A DNA stretch of 64,000 bases from Promethearchaeota archaeon (GTDB lineage: Archaea > Asgardarchaeota > Lokiarchaeia > Sigyniarchaeales > SOKP01), in NCBI GenBank assembly GCA_048938855.1, contig JBHLLT010000004.1, forward strand, positions 1-64,000. Reading direction: 5' to 3'. Both the position numbers and the translations under genes were made by a program. The notes under the pieces are model-generated. The model saw only the letters and a program-made list of their open reading frames with translations, made no database searches and was not told the origin of the DNA. Position 1 is the first letter of the stretch, and each line of letters begins with the position of its first letter. Positions 1 through 9,133 of this stretch are shown here, piece after piece.

Positions 1-318
1 ACAAATGGAGATCCACTTACTTCTATAGCAGAAAGGTATGTTAACCGAGTTCCATGTCCAAGTAAAGATTGGCCTGAGCGGAAAAGGCTCGATCATATTA
101 ATAAGTTAGCTAAGGATTATGATATACAAGGAGCTATCATTATTCAACAGAAATTTTGTGATCCTCATGAATTAGACACCGTAATAATTAAAGAGGCTTT
201 GGAAAATGATGGAATTAAAACATTATTCTTAGAGTTTGATGTTACTGTACCGATTGGGCAATTCAAGACTCGAGTTGAAGCATTTTTAGAAATAATACGT
301 GAGGAAGATCTCTTCTGA
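1..318 (+). CDS. bzdN: Benzoyl-CoA reductase (bzd-type) subunit N, 3' end (5' part outside window)
   Basis: Frame 1 from base 1 reads TNGDPLTSIAERYVNRVPCPSKDWP...GAIIIQQKFCDPHELD...LFLEFDVTVPIGQFKTRVEAFLEIIREEDLF* (TGA 316-318). This is an HgdB/BzdN-family C-terminus upstream of bzdO. It is absent from the ORF track because the start lies outside the window. Confidence 0.9.
   Translation, partial: TNGDPLTSIAERYVNRVPCPSKDWPERKRLDHINKLAKDYDIQGAIIIQQKFCDPHELDTVIIKEALENDGIKTLFLEFDVTVPIGQFKTRVEAFLEIIREEDLF
274..318 (+). repeat. Copy 1 of recoded direct repeat (VEAFLEIIREEDLF*), the current bzdN 3' end
   Basis: gttgaagcatttttagaaataatacgtgaggaagatctcttctga encodes the same peptide as 2574-2618. 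Confidence 0.9.
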
Positions 319-550
319 TCATGCCTACTTTTTTTCTATCTCGCTTTTATCCAACTATATTTAAAGGAAAAATTAGGAAGGAAGAAGGGACTGTAAAATT
401 TAAAACCTATTCAATCTTCTTAGGACTTTAGATGAAATCTATACTAAAAAACGGCATACCCTTCTTATCGTTCCAATTAGAATACCCATACACTACTTAA
501 ATTTAAATTAACAATTTCCTTCTTTTTAATTAGGTTACGGTGTTTTAATA

Positions 551-1084
551 TTGAAAGTTTTTATATCTGATATTATTGCTAAAAAGGATAGTTATGGCGC
601 TGATTACTTTTGGATAATTGCGCGACTTCAGAGCGGGTTAGAGATTATTATCAAGGATCTTTACTACGACATTCAAAGATATGTAGGCAAGTATGTTGAA
701 GTGTTATTATCAATTCTAAGGTCTCCCTATTTAGAGCTACAGAGAGGAATACATAGTCAATTTTCGTCGGAGGAGTACTATTCAGTTGAGCTCATTGATG
801 AATTGTTAGAACGGAAGAATCTTAATACAAGGAATCATAGGAGGGAGATTATTTTAACAGGTGAGTACATAGATTCCTATGTTATACCTGAGAGGTGGGT
901 GCCCCTCATAGAGCCAAAGTCGTTCAAACTCCTACTAAAGAACCCGTCGGCTCTTAAGACAAATGATGGTATATTTCTTCTAGATCCTTTTAATATAAGG
1001 AAAAAAGTCCCAATTGAAGAATTCCCTCGGGAGGTAACAATTGCGACTGGAAGTATCACTTTAATTGCTTGGTACCATCTTTAG
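551..1084 (+). CDS. Hypothetical protein (cargo of the insertion between bzdN and bzdO)
   Basis: 177-aa ORF with TTG start and no recognised motif. Confidence 0.7.
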   Translation: MKVFISDIIAKKDSYGADYFWIIARLQSGLEIIIKDLYYDIQRYVGKYVEVLLSILRSPYLELQRGIHSQFSSEEYYSVELIDELLERKNLNTRNHRREIILTGEYIDSYVIPERWVPLIEPKSFKLLLKNPSALKTNDGIFLLDPFNIRKKVPIEEFPREVTIATGSITLIAWYHL

Positions 1085-1114
1085 ACACCATTAGTCTCAT
1101 AGTATGTAAGTTTA

Positions 1115-2233
1115 TTAAAGAATAATTTTTTTTTTCATTTTAGGTGGTATTCTTAGTATTTCTAAATCCTTATTTCCTCGAAGATCAATTATTTTAAATT
1201 TTTCATTTTTTAGTATCGATTCAGGTAGTGTTTTTAAATTTGTGTCCCTTATAATCAGCCATTCCAATTTTTCTGAGATATTATTTGGAATCTCTTCGAA
1301 TCTAACATTGGTAATTATCAATTCCTCTAAATTTTTAAGATTTCCCATTGATTTAAGATTTGATAAGAGTACTACTTTTTGATGCGCGTCCTCAAATTCA
1401 CCACTAATCTTTAGTACTCTCAAATTGGGGAACATATTTAAGTTATCAGGAAGGAAGACCTCATTGAAGACTTGAATGTCCAATGCTTTCAATCCTTCCA
1501 TATAAGTATCAAATTTAACATATTTTTCTTTGTTTGTATAAATTCTTATTTTTAGAGTTAACAATTTCGCAAATTTCTCTAATTGCTTTGGGAGAGATGG
1601 ACACAGATCGTTTAAATCAATTTCAAGTTTCGTAACATGCCCACCATCTTCATAAAATATATTTTTACTTCTATTATGATCATCAAAATTTACAGCGTAC
1701 TTTTGATGGGTTAAATTAGATATTTCTATCATTGCATTTACTTCTTCTGGTTTTAGGAGGGCCATAAAGAGCTCCTCTTGATTTAAATATGAAAGATATC
1801 CTTCTTCTCTAAAGAAGTCTAAAACATACATATCTTTTAATCTCTTGGCTATTTCCTCTTTAAACGCTCTTTTGGCTCCCAGATCTCCTTGTTTACTCAA
1901 TTCTTCTAGCAAAGGAAAAGCTAAGTTAGAATGAAGCAACCGTGTATCATAATTATTTTCTACCCATGCTTGAATGTTAGAACAATGCCCCCAAAATTCT
2001 TGTTCTGGTGTTATTCCTAACTCTATCGGTTTTATTTCTCGTTCTAATACGGAAGTCAAATTTTCAGAGGCTTGATCCACTGACTTAATTTCTAGACTAT
2101 TTTCATTCTCTTGTGGATTTATTAAAAGGAGATATTTACATTGTCTAAATCGCTCTCCAGATATATATATCACAGTCTTGTCGTTTTCAAGTTTTATGGT
2201 CAAGTATTGATTAATTTTAAATTCTTTTGTCAT
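1115..2233 (-). CDS. Leucine-rich-repeat protein with Lokiarchaeia-type N-terminal domain
   Basis: N-terminal EFKINQYLTIKLEN...QCKYLLL...ITPEQEFWGHCSNIQAWVENNYDTRLLHSNLAFPLL block, followed by LRR units (NLRVLKISG, NLKNLEELIITN, LKTLPESI, IIDLRGN). Confidence 0.85.
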   Translation of the reverse strand: MTKEFKINQYLTIKLENDKTVIYISGERFRQCKYLLLINPQENENSLEIKSVDQASENLTSVLEREIKPIELGITPEQEFWGHCSNIQAWVENNYDTRLLHSNLAFPLLEELSKQGDLGAKRAFKEEIAKRLKDMYVLDFFREEGYLSYLNQEELFMALLKPEEVNAMIEISNLTHQKYAVNFDDHNRSKNIFYEDGGHVTKLEIDLNDLCPSLPKQLEKFAKLLTLKIRIYTNKEKYVKFDTYMEGLKALDIQVFNEVFLPDNLNMFPNLRVLKISGEFEDAHQKVVLLSNLKSMGNLKNLEELIITNVRFEEIPNNISEKLEWLIIRDTNLKTLPESILKNEKFKIIDLRGNKDLEILRIPPKMKKKIIL

Positions 2234-2573
2234 ATATTAACTCAAATTTTTCAATATTATCTCTAATAAGAATAAGTTATAAATTCTATTTATATTAATA
2301 CCCTCTACAGTATTACTTCTTATTCTTTTTTTCTTTATATACATATATTTTGTAACGTTGAATCTTTTTTTCTATGTTCATCATCTTGTGAAGTTATGAT
2401 AGATTCATTGAGTGAAATTTGAATTTATTTAGTCTAAATCGGAAAGATTTCCCACATTTTGGCAATATTAACAATTTGATTTTTAAATTATCATTATTTC
2501 TGTATATTAGGATACTAGAGGAAGCTATATAAAGAGAAATTTTAAAAAAGGAAATAAAATGACGATATACAAA

Positions 2574-2618
2574 GTTGAGGCATTTCTTGAAATTATAAGA
2601 GAGGAGGATCTTTTTTAA
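2574..2618 (+). repeat. Copy 2 of recoded repeat: orphan bzdN C-terminus directly upstream of bzdO, in frame with ATG 2559 (MTIYKVEAFLEIIREEDLF*)
   Basis: gttgaggcatttcttgaaattataagagaggaggatcttttttaa gives 14/14 identical residues to 274-315 with only synonymous differences. Confidence 0.9.
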
Positions 2619-2623
2619 TAAAT

Positions 2624-2630
2624 AGGAGGA
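2624..2630 (+). promoter_or_regulatory. Shine-Dalgarno of bzdO
   Basis: AGGAGGA 6 nt before ATG 2637. Confidence 0.75.
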
Positions 2631-2636
2631 ATTAAT

Positions 2637-3950
2637 ATGATGGAAACAAAATATCCAACCGAACCTTTAAAGTGTTGGAATAAGGCTAAAGCTCTTAGAG
2701 AGAATTATTACAGAGACTTTGCTGAAGCTCATGATAAAGGAGGGCTTCGATGGGTAGGGGGAGCATGGTCATTTGATGCCATTCCTGCAGGATTAGGAGA
2801 TGATGTTTATTCTTTAACAGGAGAACCTTATGGCGCGACTGTAGCATTTAATGATAAACTTGCTCTAGAGTGTCATGAAGCTACTGAAGCTAGAGGTTTT
2901 GCCAGAGATTTATGTTCTTATATGCGGAATTATTGGGGGTCTATATTAATTAACAAGTATGCTTGGCCACAATTCTCAGAAGAATTTCCGAAACCAGATT
3001 TTATTTGGCAAGATCATATTTGTTGTTCACATGCTAAATGGTATCAAGTGGCAAGCGATCTTGAAGGAGGAATTCCAATGTTTAGTATTGACGTTTCTGT
3101 AGGACCATATGAAGAGCGATCGGAACACAAGATCAATTATATTGTAGGTCAAATGCATGACGGAATTAAGTGGCTTGAAAAAGTTACAGGAAGAGATTAT
3201 GATGATGAGTTATTAATAAAGGCAGTTAAAAATGAATTTCGTTCATGCCATTATTGGGCAGCAATTTGTGAGCTTAATAAAAATATTCCTGCTCCTTTAG
3301 ACGAGAAATCCATGTATTCTTTATATGTTCTTGGGACCTTGAGAAAATCTGCTCAATGGACAGCAGACTTTTATGAAAAAGAGTTATATCCAGAAGTAAA
3401 AGATCGTGCTACAAGAGGGATTGCTGCCGTTGGAAATGAAAAATGTCGGATAATGACGGATACTCAGCCTCCATGGGCATTTTTAAGAATTTTCCGATAT
3501 TTAGAACAATATGGATGTGTTTCTGTTGGTAGTCTCTACACGTTTGGCCTTATTGGGCTATGGGAAGATAAAGAGGATGGATCATGGGGTCCAAAATCTA
3601 TTCCTGATATTGAAATAACAAATCGAGATGAAGCCTTACGAGCTCTTGCTGATTGGAACTTAAGTAAACCAGAATGGCAACACTTTTATCACCCAAAACT
3701 CAAATCTGATATGATGATTAGGATCGCTAAAGAATGGAAACTAGATGGCGTTTTCTTACATTTTAATAGAGGATGTGAAGGATTAAGTCTTGGAATTGCC
3801 GAAAATCGTTTAGCTATCCAAAAGGCAGGGATTCCGACTATGCCATTTGAAGGTAATATGGGTGATGAGAGAGAATTTGATCTTGAGAGAACAATGAAGC
3901 GGGTAGATGCTTTTATGGAATCATTAGGAATAGAAAAAGTGAAAATATAA
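2637..3950 (+). CDS. bzdO: Benzoyl-CoA reductase (bzd-type) subunit O
   Basis: [14 protein letters not shown] start, [39 protein letters not shown] and [12 protein letters not shown] motifs; operon context. Confidence 0.93.
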
Positions 3951-3987
3951 AAAAAAATTAAAAAATTTAACCAAATAGAAAAAAGCG

Positions 3988-4497
3988 TTGGATATAGATC
4001 TCATGAAACGATATATAGCCATGATTATCGGACTATTAACTATACTGGTGGTTTTTTTCGTTCCTTTCGGTATTCATATAGATTTAGGTCCTGGACCGAA
4101 TAGTATTGTTTCTATGACATGGGAGGTTCCTCTCTCTCCAGCATGGTATTCGATTCGATTTTTCAGCGCATTTCTCTTTTATTTTGAATATTGTTTTTTT
4201 AGATTTTTCTTTGTAGGATATGTTATTCTTTTAATGATTGGGAAATTTAATAAAAAATGGTTTATAATGACTGGTGTGATAAGTGAGCTTATTCCTTTAG
4301 CAATAGCAATACCTTCAACATTTATCCTTAATGTTCAAGGAGATAACTTGCATGCAATCATATATCCTATCCCAATTTTGATGATCTTTGATCTAATTAT
4401 AGTTTATTTATCAAGTCAATTAGGTCTTATTAAAATAAGTAATGAAATCTATAATAAAAGTAATTTAAAAGAAAATTTTGAAAGTGGTTTAATTTGA
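3988..4497 (+). CDS. Hypothetical multi-pass membrane protein inserted between bzdO and bzdP
   Basis: About 4 hydrophobic segments; its stop codon overlaps the bzdP TTG start. Confidence 0.7.
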   Translation: MDIDLMKRYIAMIIGLLTILVVFFVPFGIHIDLGPGPNSIVSMTWEVPLSPAWYSIRFFSAFLFYFEYCFFRFFFVGYVILLMIGKFNKKWFIMTGVISELIPLAIAIPSTFILNVQGDNLHAIIYPIPILMIFDLIIVYLSSQLGLIKISNEIYNKSNLKENFESGLI

Positions 4498-5279
4498 TAA
4501 CAGTAGGTATAGATGCAGGCTCAAAATATACAAAAGTTGTTATTTTGGACGATAATAACATTTTATCGACAGCATCAGTATTGAGTGGTTTTGATCAAGA
4601 AGAATCTGCACAGCAAGCATTAGACAAGGCTATTAAAAATGCAGGAATTAAACGTGAAGACATTAAACATATTACTACTACTGGAGCTGGAATGGATGCA
4701 ATATTTTTTGCTGATGATAATATTACAACTGTCACCGCTGATGGTCGAGGTGTATTTTTTCTTTTCCCTTCAGCTCGTACTGTCATTGATATTGGAGCTG
4801 AAGAAGGATTGGTTGTGAAACTCGATGAAAACGGAAAAGTTAAAGATTTTGGAATTAATGAAAAATGTGCTGCGGGAGCTGGTGCTTTTATAGAAGCTAT
4901 GTCGAGAGCATTAGAAGTAGATATCGAAACCATGGGAGAACTTTCTTTAAAATCAACGAAACAGATACCAATGAATGCTCAATGTACTATTTTTGCTGAA
5001 TCCGAAGTAGTTTCATTGATACACCAAAAAACTTCAAAGGAGGATATTATTCATGCAGTACATGATGCGATTGCTGATAGAAATACAAGCATGGTACGGC
5101 AAATCGGTATTGAAAAGGATGTCGCGTTAATAGGTGGTGTTGCGAATAATATTGGATTTGTAGATGCAATGAATAAGAATTTAGGTTTTGAACTATTAGT
5201 ACCGAAAAATGGTGTAACTCCTCAATATGTAAGTGCATTAGGAGCAGCTCTTATAGCACAAGATAAAATTGGAGGTTAG
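4494..5279 (+). CDS. bzdP: Benzoyl-CoA reductase ATPase/activase subunit P
   Basis: ASKHA activase motifs GIDAGS, TGAG, VIDIGAEE, NEKCAAGAG, CTIFAESEVVS, GGVA. Confidence 0.9.
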   Translation: MITVGIDAGSKYTKVVILDDNNILSTASVLSGFDQEESAQQALDKAIKNAGIKREDIKHITTTGAGMDAIFFADDNITTVTADGRGVFFLFPSARTVIDIGAEEGLVVKLDENGKVKDFGINEKCAAGAGAFIEAMSRALEVDIETMGELSLKSTKQIPMNAQCTIFAESEVVSLIHQKTSKEDIIHAVHDAIADRNTSMVRQIGIEKDVALIGGVANNIGFVDAMNKNLGFELLVPKNGVTPQYVSALGAALIAQDKIGG

Positions 5280-5283
5280 AATA

Positions 5284-6168
5284 ATGTCAAATGCAGAATC
5301 AGAAAAGGAATATTGGAGATGGACTGAATCTCGTTATACTCACCCTGATTTAAAGTGGGAAGATGGAGATATCATCTCAGCAGGAGTTGATGTTGGGTCA
5401 GTCAGTACACAAGCAGTAATTATGGTAGATGGTGAAATTTATTGCTATTCAAGCATGAGAACGGGAAGTAATAGTCCAGATAGTGCAAATAATGCTATGG
5501 AGTGGGCGCTTGAGGGTACTGGATTAACTTTAGATAAGATTCAATATGTCGTTGGAACTGGATACGGACGTGTAAATGTTCCATTTGCAAAACGAGCTAT
5601 CACTGAAATTGCATGCCATGCTAGAGGAGCTAACTTTATTTATGGTCCAGAAATCCGGACTGTATTAGATATGGGAGGCCAAGATTGTAAAGCAATACGA
5701 TGTGATCAACGCGGTAAAGTTACTGCGTTCCTTATGAATGATAAATGCGCCGCAGGAACAGGTCGAGGAATGGAAGTATTTGCAGATTTACTTCAAGTAC
5801 ATATTAATGATGTAGGAAAAATGTCTCTCCAAGTGGATGAAGAACCTGAACCCGTTAGTAGTACCTGTGTAGTATTCGCAAAGTCAGAAGCAGTGGGATT
5901 ATTGAGAAAAGGTTGGCCAAAGGAGAAAGTATTAGCGGCTTATTGTTCTGCCATGGCTCATCGGGTAGTGACACTTTTACTGAGACTTGGTATTGAAGAA
6001 AAATTTGCTATAACAGGTGGAATCGCTAAAAATATTGGAGTAGTCAAAAGAATCGAAGATGAGTTGAAATTGAAAGCTCCTGAACCTAGTATCGATCCAC
6101 AACTTGCAGGAGCTATTGGTGCAGCCTTATTCGCCAAAGCCCTTATCGAAAAGGAACGTAAAAAATAA
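5284..6168 (+). CDS. bzdQ: Benzoyl-CoA reductase ATPase/activase subunit Q
   Basis: EYWRW N-terminus, GVDVGSVS, GTGYGR, TEIACHARGA, DMGGQDCK, MNDKCAAGTGRG. ATG 5284 follows GGAGGT (ORF track uses upstream 5269). Confidence 0.93.
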   Translation: MSNAESEKEYWRWTESRYTHPDLKWEDGDIISAGVDVGSVSTQAVIMVDGEIYCYSSMRTGSNSPDSANNAMEWALEGTGLTLDKIQYVVGTGYGRVNVPFAKRAITEIACHARGANFIYGPEIRTVLDMGGQDCKAIRCDQRGKVTAFLMNDKCAAGTGRGMEVFADLLQVHINDVGKMSLQVDEEPEPVSSTCVVFAKSEAVGLLRKGWPKEKVLAAYCSAMAHRVVTLLLRLGIEEKFAITGGIAKNIGVVKRIEDELKLKAPEPSIDPQLAGAIGAALFAKALIEKERKK

Positions 6169-6208
6169 TTATATAATATTATATTATTCGAAAAGAAAGA
6201 GGAAGGAT

Positions 6209-6496
6209 ATGACAAAAGCAAATTATGGTTACAAGGATGGTTCAGGAGAGTATTTTATAACTATAGATACTGAACTGTGTAATTCATGTGGTAAATGTGT
6301 AGAAGTGTGTCCGGCAGGTGTCCTCGAAATGGCTGAAGATGAATTAGATCCTTTAGGTGATGAAATAATAGCGACTGTTTCAGAGGAACATCGCAAGAAA
6401 ATTAAATACTCTTGTGCTCCTTGCAAAGGTGATGCAACAAAGGAACTGCCTTGTGTAAAAGCTTGCGAACCGGAAGCAATTTCTCATTCTTGGTAA
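6209..6496 (+). CDS. bzdM: Ferredoxin of the benzoyl-CoA reductase operon
   Basis: ANYGYKDGSGEYFITID, CNSCGKCVEVCP, KYSCAPCK...PCVKAC, ends ISHSW. The true start is probably ATG 6209 after GAGGAAGG. Confidence 0.88.
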   Translation: MTKANYGYKDGSGEYFITIDTELCNSCGKCVEVCPAGVLEMAEDELDPLGDEIIATVSEEHRKKIKYSCAPCKGDATKELPCVKACEPEAISHSW

Positions 6497-6610
6497 TCTA
6501 TCTCTAAATCTTTTTTATATATTTACTTTTAGTTTTTAAATGATTTAATTTAATTTCTTAATTGAAAAGTAATTAATTCTATGGTTAATTTTAACTAGCG
6601 AGTGTTAATT

Positions 6611-9133
6611 ATGGATTCAATATCAATAACGATTAATGGAACAAAAGTTGAAGCTGAGAAGGATTCTACGATATTAAAGGCAGCTTTAGATGCTGGAATT
6701 TACATTCCTAGTATTTGTGCTCATCCAGATTTACCTACTTTGGTAGGTTTAAAGCCATATCAGGAAATTTTTCAAGGAGAAACCAGAATTAATAATGATT
6801 ATTCTCAAGAACATCAAGGTTGTCAGCTTTGCGTCGTAAAAGTAGAAGGGATTAGAGAATTAAAAACATCGTGTAGTACTATTATAGAAGAAGGAATGGT
6901 GATTTCAACTGATAATCCTGAAATTCACAGTTTTCGCCAAGAAAAATTATTGACTGTTCTCTCAAAACATCCCCATGCGTGTTTAATGTGTGCCCAACGT
7001 GAAGGTTGTAGCCGTGAACCGTGTTCACCAAATGTTCCAGTGGTAGAACGTTGTTGTCCTATATTAGGTCGATGTGAATTACAAAAAGTAGCTGAATATA
7101 TTGGAATTCGAGAAGACATAACAAGATATAAGCCTCAAGGACATACCATTATAGAAGACGAACCTTTATTCATCAGAAACTATGAGTTATGTATTGGATG
7201 TACTAGATGTGTAAGAGTTTGTCGAGATGTTCGAGGCATTGAAGCTTTAGGTTTTGTTTATTCAAACGGAGAAACCCTAGTAGGAAGTTTAGCTCCTTCA
7301 CTCAAGGAGTCTGGTTGTAAATTTTGTGGAGCTTGTATCGAAGTATGTCCGACAGGAGCACTTACAGATAAGGATATCCTCTGGGCTGAACGTGAAAAAT
7401 TGTTGGTTCCCTGTAGAGAAGCATGTCCTTTAAAAATTGACGTACCTCGTTATATTCGATTAATTTCTGAGAAAAAATATGCTGAGGCAGCCGCGGTTAT
7501 TCGAGAAAAAACCCCTCTTCCTTCAGTTCTTGGAAGAATTTGTTTTCATGATTGTGAACTTGAATGTCGGAGGAATCAAATTAATGAACCTATTGCTATT
7601 TGTGCTTTAAAACGTTATGCAATGGATTTTGACAATGAAATGTGGAAGTCAAATCTAAAGATTAAACCTCCAACAGGGAAAAAAGTGGCAGTTGTAGGGT
7701 CAGGTCCCTCTGGTTTAACAGCAGCATATTACTTAAGGAGGTTAGGGCATTCAGTAACCTTATTTGAAGCTAATTCTTATTTAGGAGGTATGTTAAGACA
7801 AGGGATCCCTGAATATAGATTACCACGATCTGTTCTTCAGAAAGATCTTAAGCATATTTTGAGTATAGGAATTGATGCTCAAACCGAAAAAGTTGTAGGT
7901 GAACATTTATCTCTTGAAGATTTGAAAAGTCAAGGATTTAATGCAACCTTTTTGGCAATTGGTGCTCAAGGTTCTAAAAAACTTGATCTTAAGGGATCAG
8001 ATCTCCCTAATATCTTATGGGGTCTTGAATTTCTTAAAAAAGTTAATAATGGTGAAGATGTAAAAATATCAGATACTGTTATCGTAATTGGTGGTGGAAA
8101 TGTAGCAATTGATGTTGCTTTAACTGCTAAACGACTTGGTGCTAAAGATATACAATTAACATGTCTGGAATGTAGAGAAGAAATGCCTGCTCATGAATGG
8201 GAAATTCAAAAGGCTATTGATGAGGGAATTACACTTGATTGTTCTTGGGGTCCAAAAGCGATTATTGATAGGAATGGTGAAGTATCGGAAGTTGAGTTAG
8301 TCCATTGTGATTCTGTGTATGATAATAGTAACGCGTTCAATCCAATCTTTGATAATAACAATAGAAAATCGGTTAAAACTGAAATGGTAATATTAGCAAT
8401 AGGGCAAATTCCTGATCTATCTTTACTAGGAAGCGAAAGTAAAATAAATATAACTTCATCTGGATTAATTCAAGTTAAGGAAGGCTCACTAGAGACTAAT
8501 GTACCAGGATTATTTGCAGGTGGTGAAGTTATAAATAGCCCCAGTTCTGTTGTTGATGCAATTGAAATGGGAAGAAGGGCTGCTACTTCAATCGATAAAT
8601 TTTTGGGAGGCAATGGTGAAATAGAAGATATACTTATTAAGCCAGATATTCCTCCAAATAATTTAGGACGCGATGAAGGTTTTTATGATAAAATGCGTGT
8701 AAAAATGCCCCTTCTATCATTAGAACAGCGACAAAGTAATTTTAATGAAATTGAATTGGGTTTTGACGAAAAATTGGCCCTTGAGGAAGCAAATCGTTGT
8801 TTAAGATGTGATCTACGCTTTGAAATCTCTTCTGTTGTATTACCGCCTCAAAAATGGTTAGATCTAACCACTGAGAACATTCAAAATGTTCCTGAAACTG
8901 AAGGTGTCATTCAAGTCTTAAATGAGAATCAAAAAATAATTTTAATTCAAGGTACTCAAAATATGCGTTTAGCAATTGAAGAGCAATTAGGTGCAAATAC
9001 ACAAGCTTGTTATTTCGAGTTTGATGAAGATCCTATGTATACAAAAAGAGAAAGTGAGCTTTTACAACAATTCATGCAAGAATTTGGAAGATTCCCAGAA
9101 GGGAATGAAGATCTTGATGATGATCTTTTCTGA
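6611..9133 (+). CDS. bzdV: BzdV-like NAD(P)H:ferredoxin oxidoreductase (2Fe-2S, 4Fe-4S, GltD-like FAD domain, small C-terminal domain)
   Basis: IPSICAHP...GCQLC...SC, CIGCTRCVRVC, CKFCGACIEVCP, PCREACP, GSGPSG, GIPEYRLP, GGGNVAID, EANRCLRCD; position after bzdM. Confidence 0.85.
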   Translation: MDSISITINGTKVEAEKDSTILKAALDAGIYIPSICAHPDLPTLVGLKPYQEIFQGETRINNDYSQEHQGCQLCVVKVEGIRELKTSCSTIIEEGMVISTDNPEIHSFRQEKLLTVLSKHPHACLMCAQREGCSREPCSPNVPVVERCCPILGRCELQKVAEYIGIREDITRYKPQGHTIIEDEPLFIRNYELCIGCTRCVRVCRDVRGIEALGFVYSNGETLVGSLAPSLKESGCKFCGACIEVCPTGALTDKDILWAEREKLLVPCREACPLKIDVPRYIRLISEKKYAEAAAVIREKTPLPSVLGRICFHDCELECRRNQINEPIAICALKRYAMDFDNEMWKSNLKIKPPTGKKVAVVGSGPSGLTAAYYLRRLGHSVTLFEANSYLGGMLRQGIPEYRLPRSVLQKDLKHILSIGIDAQTEKVVGEHLSLEDLKSQGFNATFLAIGAQGSKKLDLKGSDLPNILWGLEFLKKVNNGEDVKISDTVIVIGGGNVAIDVALTAKRLGAKDIQLTCLECREEMPAHEWEIQKAIDEGITLDCSWGPKAIIDRNGEVSEVELVHCDSVYDNSNAFNPIFDNNNRKSVKTEMVILAIGQIPDLSLLGSESKINITSSGLIQVKEGSLETNVPGLFAGGEVINSPSSVVDAIEMGRRAATSIDKFLGGNGEIEDILIKPDIPPNNLGRDEGFYDKMRVKMPLLSLEQRQSNFNEIELGFDEKLALEEANRCLRCDLRFEISSVVLPPQKWLDLTTENIQNVPETEGVIQVLNENQKIILIQGTQNMRLAIEEQLGANTQACYFEFDEDPMYTKRESELLQQFMQEFGRFPEGNEDLDDDLF

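Follow-up and report, generated by a model that had tools for sequence, protein, structure and literature searches.

Protein-identical but respelled bzdN gene ends flank an accessory gene insertion at the bzdN–bzdO junction of a Promethearchaeota genome

The window studied here is a 64,000-nt stretch (G000:C70:1-64000) of one metagenome-assembled genome (MAG) of a Promethearchaeota archaeon, read from its assembled contigs. Near its start, a 2,255-bp insertion (319-2573) parts two genes, bzdN and bzdO, and the last 14 codons of bzdN with a stop codon stand on both sides of it, alike in peptide and unlike in spelling. We give roughly an even chance to the reading that the upstream copy is a replacement tail, imported together with two cargo genes via homology-facilitated illegitimate recombination. 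The gene names are those of the initial annotation and denote a family assignment only. Both products pass the gathering score of Pfam PF06050 (HGD-D; 101.7 bits for bzdN and 156.1 for bzdO, cut-off 28.4), the family of benzoyl-CoA reductase / 2-hydroxyacyl-CoA dehydratase subunits.

The two copies, copy 1 at 274-318 and copy 2 at 2574-2618, both on the plus strand, each encode VEAFLEIIREEDLF and a stop, which is TGA in copy 1 and TAA in copy 2. They are mismatched at 9 of 42 coding bases (78% identity) and every mismatch is synonymous. The longest run common to both is 6 nt, or 7 if one flanking A is counted, and a seeded repeat search did not pair them. A six-frame search of the 3.95-Mb assembly found the peptide at these two sites only, and therefore the repeat is not due to chance. 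The initial annotation had described this pair by its shared peptide, its synonymous-only differences and its differing stops, and the sequence confirms all three.

The insertion is real, derived and set into a conserved junction. Nine genomes of the same genus carry bzdO orthologues with 90–95% amino acid identity. Eight of these can be read upstream of the gene, and in all eight bzdN has the identical 14-residue end and bzdO begins 11–18 nt further on. A DNA search of the genus raised the number of empty-site genomes to 14. When one genome per GTDB species was searched with a degenerate pattern of the 14-residue tail, 35 loci were found, all in Asgard MAGs and all with a single copy and with bzdO within 8–18 nt. 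One JGI metagenome contig likewise has an empty site, with a single tail and bzdO adjacent. Counted over the other tail-bearing lineages, the site is empty in 36 of 36. Since all of them have the single tail and the adjacent bzdO, 319-2573 is a derived and lineage-specific insertion, and the earlier proposal that the interval had been inserted, which called for an empty site in relatives, is borne out.

The inserted sequence itself has few counterparts. The whole 2,255-bp interval is matchless in 54 genus genomes, and no other genome searched contains it. The left junction with its downstream sequence was found nowhere else, except for a 93-nt piece that matches G007. This piece (359-451) is non-coding and lies just within the left end of the insert; its counterpart, G007:C225:2077-2169, shares 86% identity with it and has unrelated genes on its flanks. 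Rfam has no match for the piece and gave just a chance-level snoRNA match on 1-4200, and the surrounding sequence (355-455) folds no better than shuffled sequence. Searches with the tail pattern found no match in IMG/VR, and for a copy-1-type tail in the JGI metagenomes they returned one contig only, which has an empty site and a CGA codon.

To tell the native tail from the other, we compared 39 tails, namely copies 1 and 2 and 37 native tails. Copy 2 differs from the native tails at 0–7 of 42 coding bases, has a coding part identical to that of L105, shows zero private states and is on average the closest to the rest of the 39 (mean distance 4.4 of 45). Copy 1 differs from them at 5–14 bases and has the highest mean distance (10.5 of 45). 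Its private states, CTC, TTC and the stop TGA, all cluster at the very end, within three codons, while the native tails all end in TTT and then TAA or TAG. The first 24 bases of copy 1 are spelled as in several native tails (e.g. those of G055 and G047), so its unusual part is the last 21 bases. Of the two, copy 2 resembles the native tails and copy 1 stands apart.

Copy 2 also keeps the native distance to bzdO. The 18-nt spacer behind it (2619-2636, plus strand) contains a Shine-Dalgarno-like GGAGG at 2625-2629 and aligns with the 8–18-nt spacers of the 36 other lineages. It leads to the bzdO ATG at 2637 (bzdO, 2637-3950, plus strand; Pfam HGD-D, E=2.3e-45). With copy 2 central among the tails and natively spaced and copy 1 the outlier, it is copy 2 that represents the native end, now displaced, and copy 1 that has replaced it. 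The initial annotation had already taken copy 2 for the original end of the gene and had argued that the pair is no fresh target-site duplication; both views hold, as the excess divergence is all in copy 1.

Two other origins of the pair were rejected. A fresh target-site duplication is ruled out by the comparison of tail divergence, and a decayed tandem duplicate of bzdN by the region upstream of 2574, which has no similarity to bzdN in DNA or protein.

The divergence between the copies also bears on timing. At third positions, 7 of 14 are identical between them, which is the level seen between G000 and other species in the same part of bzdN. Copy 2 nevertheless has zero replacement changes at about 30 non-synonymous sites. 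A neutral copy 2 as old as the divergence of copy 1 should bear many such changes. Hence, either the insertion is recent and copy 1 had diverged before it, or copy 2 is under selection.

The window begins inside bzdN, as the end of contig C70 cuts the gene. Its last 105 codons and stop (1-318, plus strand; Pfam HGD-D, E=8e-29) lie in the window and codons 1–293 on contig C23, whose last 77 nt (C23:10186-10262) equal C70:1-77 exactly. Joined, the two contigs give an intact bzdN of 373 codons, so that copy 1 indeed ends the gene today, as first annotated. Upstream of bzdN, C23 is syntenic with relatives across 5.7 kb. The 77-nt overlap has the length of an assembler k-mer, so the assembly graph branched there; the branch may stem from a second, co-existing version of the bzdN 3′ end.

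This branch point raises the question of an assembly or binning artefact that joined the sequences of two co-occurring strains. The start of C70 within bzdN at a k-mer-sized overlap speaks for it, as do a bin contamination of 7% and exact runs of up to 88 nt common to related species in the bzd operon. Against it, both repeat junctions lie within one gap-free contig, and the 2.2-kb insert that links them is single copy in the genome. Moreover, the copies share no exact word above 6 nt, too little for a k-mer assembler to have joined them by error. We rate an artefact unlikely, and indeed leave it hardly any probability.

In the reading that we favour, a single lineage-specific insertion would have set ORF177, named for its open reading frame (ORF), and a convergent leucine-rich repeat (LRR) gene into bzdN, 42 nt short of its end. 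A separate version of the last 14 codons and stop would have come in with this DNA, by which BzdN stayed full length and its protein unchanged. The native tail would have been shifted 2.3 kb downstream, still in front of the bzdO ribosome-binding site. Copy 1 would come from another bzdN-bearing lineage, where the tail had long evolved away from bzdO, instead of having diverged in place. As only products with an intact bzdN survive, every difference between the copies would be synonymous.

Less confidently, we infer that the left joint was made by homologous pairing within bzdN and the right one by an illegitimate join, with no dedicated integrase. Homologous anchoring combined with an illegitimate join is described in bacteria, and is proposed there for the C-terminal displacement in Rhs and type VI secretion system (T6SS) loci (PMC5361080, PMC3240628). 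Such recombination requires no element-encoded enzyme and yields one-off events, an orphan 3′ piece and duplicates of variable length. In the insert, no mobility genes of its own were found among the cargo, and the resident 3′ piece is left as an orphan. The initial annotation had offered two alternatives, and the one in which incoming DNA gave a replacement 3′ end is the better supported. Its addition that integrating elements do so is not demonstrated, as neither an integrase nor an identical core was found, nor any second site that is occupied.

Several observations favour import with the cargo. All other lineages in which the tail was found have an empty site, the private states of copy 1 sit where native tails are nearly invariant, and the cargo is accessory and without a recombinase. 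The bzdN stretch upstream of copy 1 is also somewhat more diverged from the usual nearest relatives of G000 than the rest. Two other gene-tail duplicates, differing in length, flank one-gene inserts in the same genome, and an imprecise join fits them better than a fixed attachment (att) site.

How far an imported tract would reach into bzdN was examined by phylogeny. The bzdN 5′ part and bzdO each yield a tree in which G000 groups with G055, G017, G008 and G046 (support 96 and 89, respectively). In the tree of the 92 codons upstream of copy 1, it is placed loosely elsewhere, on a longer branch. The ratio of the G000-to-clade distance to the within-clade distance is 1.49 in those 92 codons vs 1.18 elsewhere (bootstrap P=0.011), with other windows reaching up to 1.52. 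The best change point falls near window position 50, inside the 77-nt contig overlap. The near-star phylogeny of these species makes this test low in power, and an imported tract that reaches into bzdN is possible.

Some results weigh against the import. The signal left of the tail is not significant by the permutation of the change point (p 0.12), and the approximately unbiased (AU) test does not reject the usual placement of the bzdN 3′ part (p=0.47). Among the genomes searched, no donor lineage was found and none has bzdN followed by anything except bzdO. At the right joint, no more than 1 nt of microhomology precedes the two copies, a value that needs the donor to be judged.

The two other duplicates came from a genome-wide scan of G000 for recurring gene tails and are looser cases. 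On C80 (L060, ~2148-4556, minus strand), a 160-aa zinc-ribbon gene has its last ~33 codons, along with 25 nt of the 3′ flank, repeated 1.9 kb downstream. This repeat of ~130 nt has 10 mismatches, 3 of them replacement changes, and brackets one 535-aa gene on the other strand; its empty site is not definable, as the contexts in relatives differ. On C32 (L061, minus strand, ~6100-8000 of the reverse complement), a second copy of the 3′ end of a 490-aa gene (more than 230 nt) and of its downstream flank lies 1.57 kb away. The repeat is ~90% identical, decayed with in-frame stops, and brackets a 239-aa gene. These two cases suggest that the process may recur. Neither of them contains an LRR gene, so a link to LRR cargo specifically is unsupported, and the initial idea that recoded gene-end duplicates are a route for such cargo finds no backing in the scan.

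The layout also recalls a site-specific integrative element, whose attP would have carried a mimic of the bzdN tail, leaving copy 1 as attL and copy 2 as attR, and whose integrase and most other parts would later have been deleted. The replacement tail is proximal and the displaced native tail distal, as expected of such an element, and the homology stops exactly at the stop codon. A 45-nt repeat is within the size range of archaeal att sites, and selection on the element to restore its target gene would explain the synonymous-only divergence. A precedent is e14 at icd with its 163-bp duplicated 3′ end (PMC6379469). Of four features that define att-type integration, the layout is seen here, and the other three, which are an integrase, an identical core and repeated use of the site, are absent. 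The insert has no recombinase domain by Pfam, the longest run shared by the copies is too short for an identical core, and the site is occupied in none of the 36 other lineages (0/36). Besides, IMG/VR holds no contig with the tail, and the cargo pair elsewhere lacks flanking gene-tail repeats. We hold an element remnant to be unlikely. Slightly more room, though still within the unlikely, is left for an old insertion that duplicated 45 nt in place, after which copy 1 drifted synonymously away from bzdO and copy 2 was held by selection, either as a 19-codon minigene (ATG 2559) coupled to bzdO or as a bzdO leader.

Such a duplication in place would agree with the private changes of copy 1 in its last codons, which are nearly invariant in the 37 native tails, and with the third-position identity of 7/14, equal to that of G000 and its relatives in the same part of bzdN. 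The ATG at 2559, with a TATA-like octamer ~26 nt upstream, fits it too. It demands, however, that selection act at the level of the peptide on a remnant that opens with five codons of no relation to BzdN, and the native junction has no conserved RNA structure and the region folds no better than shuffled. TATA-like strings are common at ~30% G+C, and no second genome was found to carry the insertion. Nor do we know of any mechanism that would duplicate 45 nt of a target in the absence of both a transposase and terminal repeats. A course in two steps would start from an old insertion of the cargo into the bzdN–bzdO spacer without any duplication, with copy 1 as the drifted native tail, and continue with a later swap of the bzdO side for a homologous fragment starting 45 nt inside the bzdN of another lineage. 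It would account for the drift in copy 1 and the pristine state of copy 2 with no need for a special element, and identity profiles suggest mosaic recombination among these species. Yet it requires two rare events, bzdO is not unusually near any sampled lineage (identity 0.83–0.89), and bzdO falls in the same clade as the bzdN 5′ part. We consider these two steps very unlikely.

As to its expression, bzdO now lies 2.3 kb away from bzdN and follows a convergent gene, and it would therefore depend on a promoter in the AT-rich right end of the insert. This spacer (2234-2558) would hold both the promoter of the LRR gene and a new one for bzdO, judging from its sequence. A TATA-like octamer lies at 2526-2533, and such motifs are common in a genome of ~30% G+C. 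The octamer would place the transcription start near the ATG at 2559, which opens a 19-codon frame (2559-2618, plus strand) made of the ATG, four unrelated codons and copy 2.

This frame is a candidate minigene. An alignment of the 36 native junctions shows no conserved RNA structure, and the leader from copy 2 to bzdO (2520-2660) folds no better than shuffled sequence. If copy 2 is under selection at all, the target would thus have to be the peptide or the act of translating it. The other alternative of the initial annotation comes in here, by which copy 2 would be translated, possibly leaderless, and kept by selection because it feeds ribosomes into bzdO or mimics the BzdN C-terminus, with copy 1 recoded in place after an old insertion. 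In this specific form it is distinctly doubtful.

The cargo consists of ORF177 (551-1084, plus strand; 177 aa) and the LRR gene, LRR372 (1115-2233, minus strand; 372 aa), which are convergent. ORF177 is matchless in Pfam, PHROGs and PADLOC, and LRR372 has no match in PHROGs or PADLOC, the phage and defence libraries. Neither ORF has a recombinase domain in Pfam, and a protein atlas search with the cargo returned nothing usable. LRR372 scores 33.2 bits with Pfam LRR_14, under the cut-off of 40. It is composed of an N-terminal domain common to many paralogues and C-terminal leucine-rich repeats, with paralogues on C55, C22, C34, C81 and C49.

ORF177 has 97 homologues, all unnamed or hypothetical proteins of Promethearchaeota or Thorarchaeota. 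The identical protein is encoded on three other contigs. Strong matches are limited to 10 of 54 genomes in the genus and 11 of 154 in the order. These matches are 43–62% identical, compared with 90–95% for bzdO, and lie in varied neighbourhoods. The convergent pair of ORF177 and a gene related to LRR372 is found in G046, G011, G110 and G105 as here, which makes five genomes. As the pair recurs in other genomes, the insert is a recurring accessory pair, patchily distributed by the sequence matches. No gene-tail repeats surround its other copies.

In five other genomes (L120:1-4272, L122:533-3658, L044:2384-3538, L040:3-668 and L033:363-677), a gene, in some cases very large, directly precedes the ORF177 homologue. 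The products of these genes share an end motif, a V/I-rich strand followed by G.IVTA[YF]. Pfam found nothing in the large upstream proteins, their C-termini included. The layout resembles that of polymorphic toxin-immunity pairs, and by this likeness ORF177 could be an orphan immunity-like gene.

Another ORF177 homologue, on G005:C2, lies between two 57-nt direct repeats of 93% identity (L073:1334-1390 and 2415-2471). Each repeat holds a 23-nt palindrome, which suggests a cassette-like unit.

Downstream of bzdO, the operon continues with two BcrAD/BadFG ATPase genes. Between bzdO and the first of them lies an ORF for a 169-aa membrane protein (3988-4497), which has a paralogue at G000:C55:54655-55083. 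Among the relatives examined, it is present in G016, G017, G055 and G046 only, and is thus a second presence/absence polymorphism in the operon.

The locus offers a clean natural example from the Asgard archaea of accessory genes that enter a conserved operon while the target gene is spared. LRR genes, one of which is in the cargo, are very numerous in these genomes. Moreover, the event leaves a signature that can be scanned for, namely a gene tail with the same protein in another spelling and, further downstream, the stranded native tail. If general, it would mean that Lokiarchaeia gain genes via homology-anchored capture instead of classical mobile elements. With a single event in one MAG, no donor found and precedents in bacteria, we regard its significance as moderate.

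Among known systems, transposon target-site duplications also flank an insert with direct repeats of the target. They are initially identical, usually 2–15 bp long, and come with a transposase or terminal repeats. Unlike them, the repeats here are 45 nt and 78% identical with the excess divergence all in copy 1, and neither a transposase (by Pfam) nor terminal inverted repeats at 319/2573 were found. A plain target-site duplication is rejected on the repeat length, the non-identical copies and the missing transposase.

Among integrating elements, a close layout is that of prophage e14 and of phage 21 at icd, where the target gene stays functional through a substitute 3′ end that the insert brings, and the original end lies at the far side. 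For e14 in E. coli, the 163-bp original 3′ end of icd is kept as a short pseudo-copy (PMC6379469). Unlike the present insert, e14 has its own integrase, a recombination core in common with its target and a site occupied in many strains. The insert here has no recombinase, no identical core above 6 nt, two cargo genes only and no second occupied site in 36 other lineages.

The C-terminal displacement in Rhs, contact-dependent inhibition (CDI) and T6SS loci differs in that a variable toxin tip is swapped for a different one, whereas here the tail is protein-identical, the gene is metabolic and the host is an Asgard archaeon, with a donor-derived anchor that is putative. It is alike in that a conserved resident stretch serves as the anchor, the other end is joined illegitimately, the old 3′ piece is orphaned and no element recombinase takes part (PMC5361080, PMC3240628). 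The kind of event is known from bacteria, and the instance comes from a lineage where it was previously undescribed.

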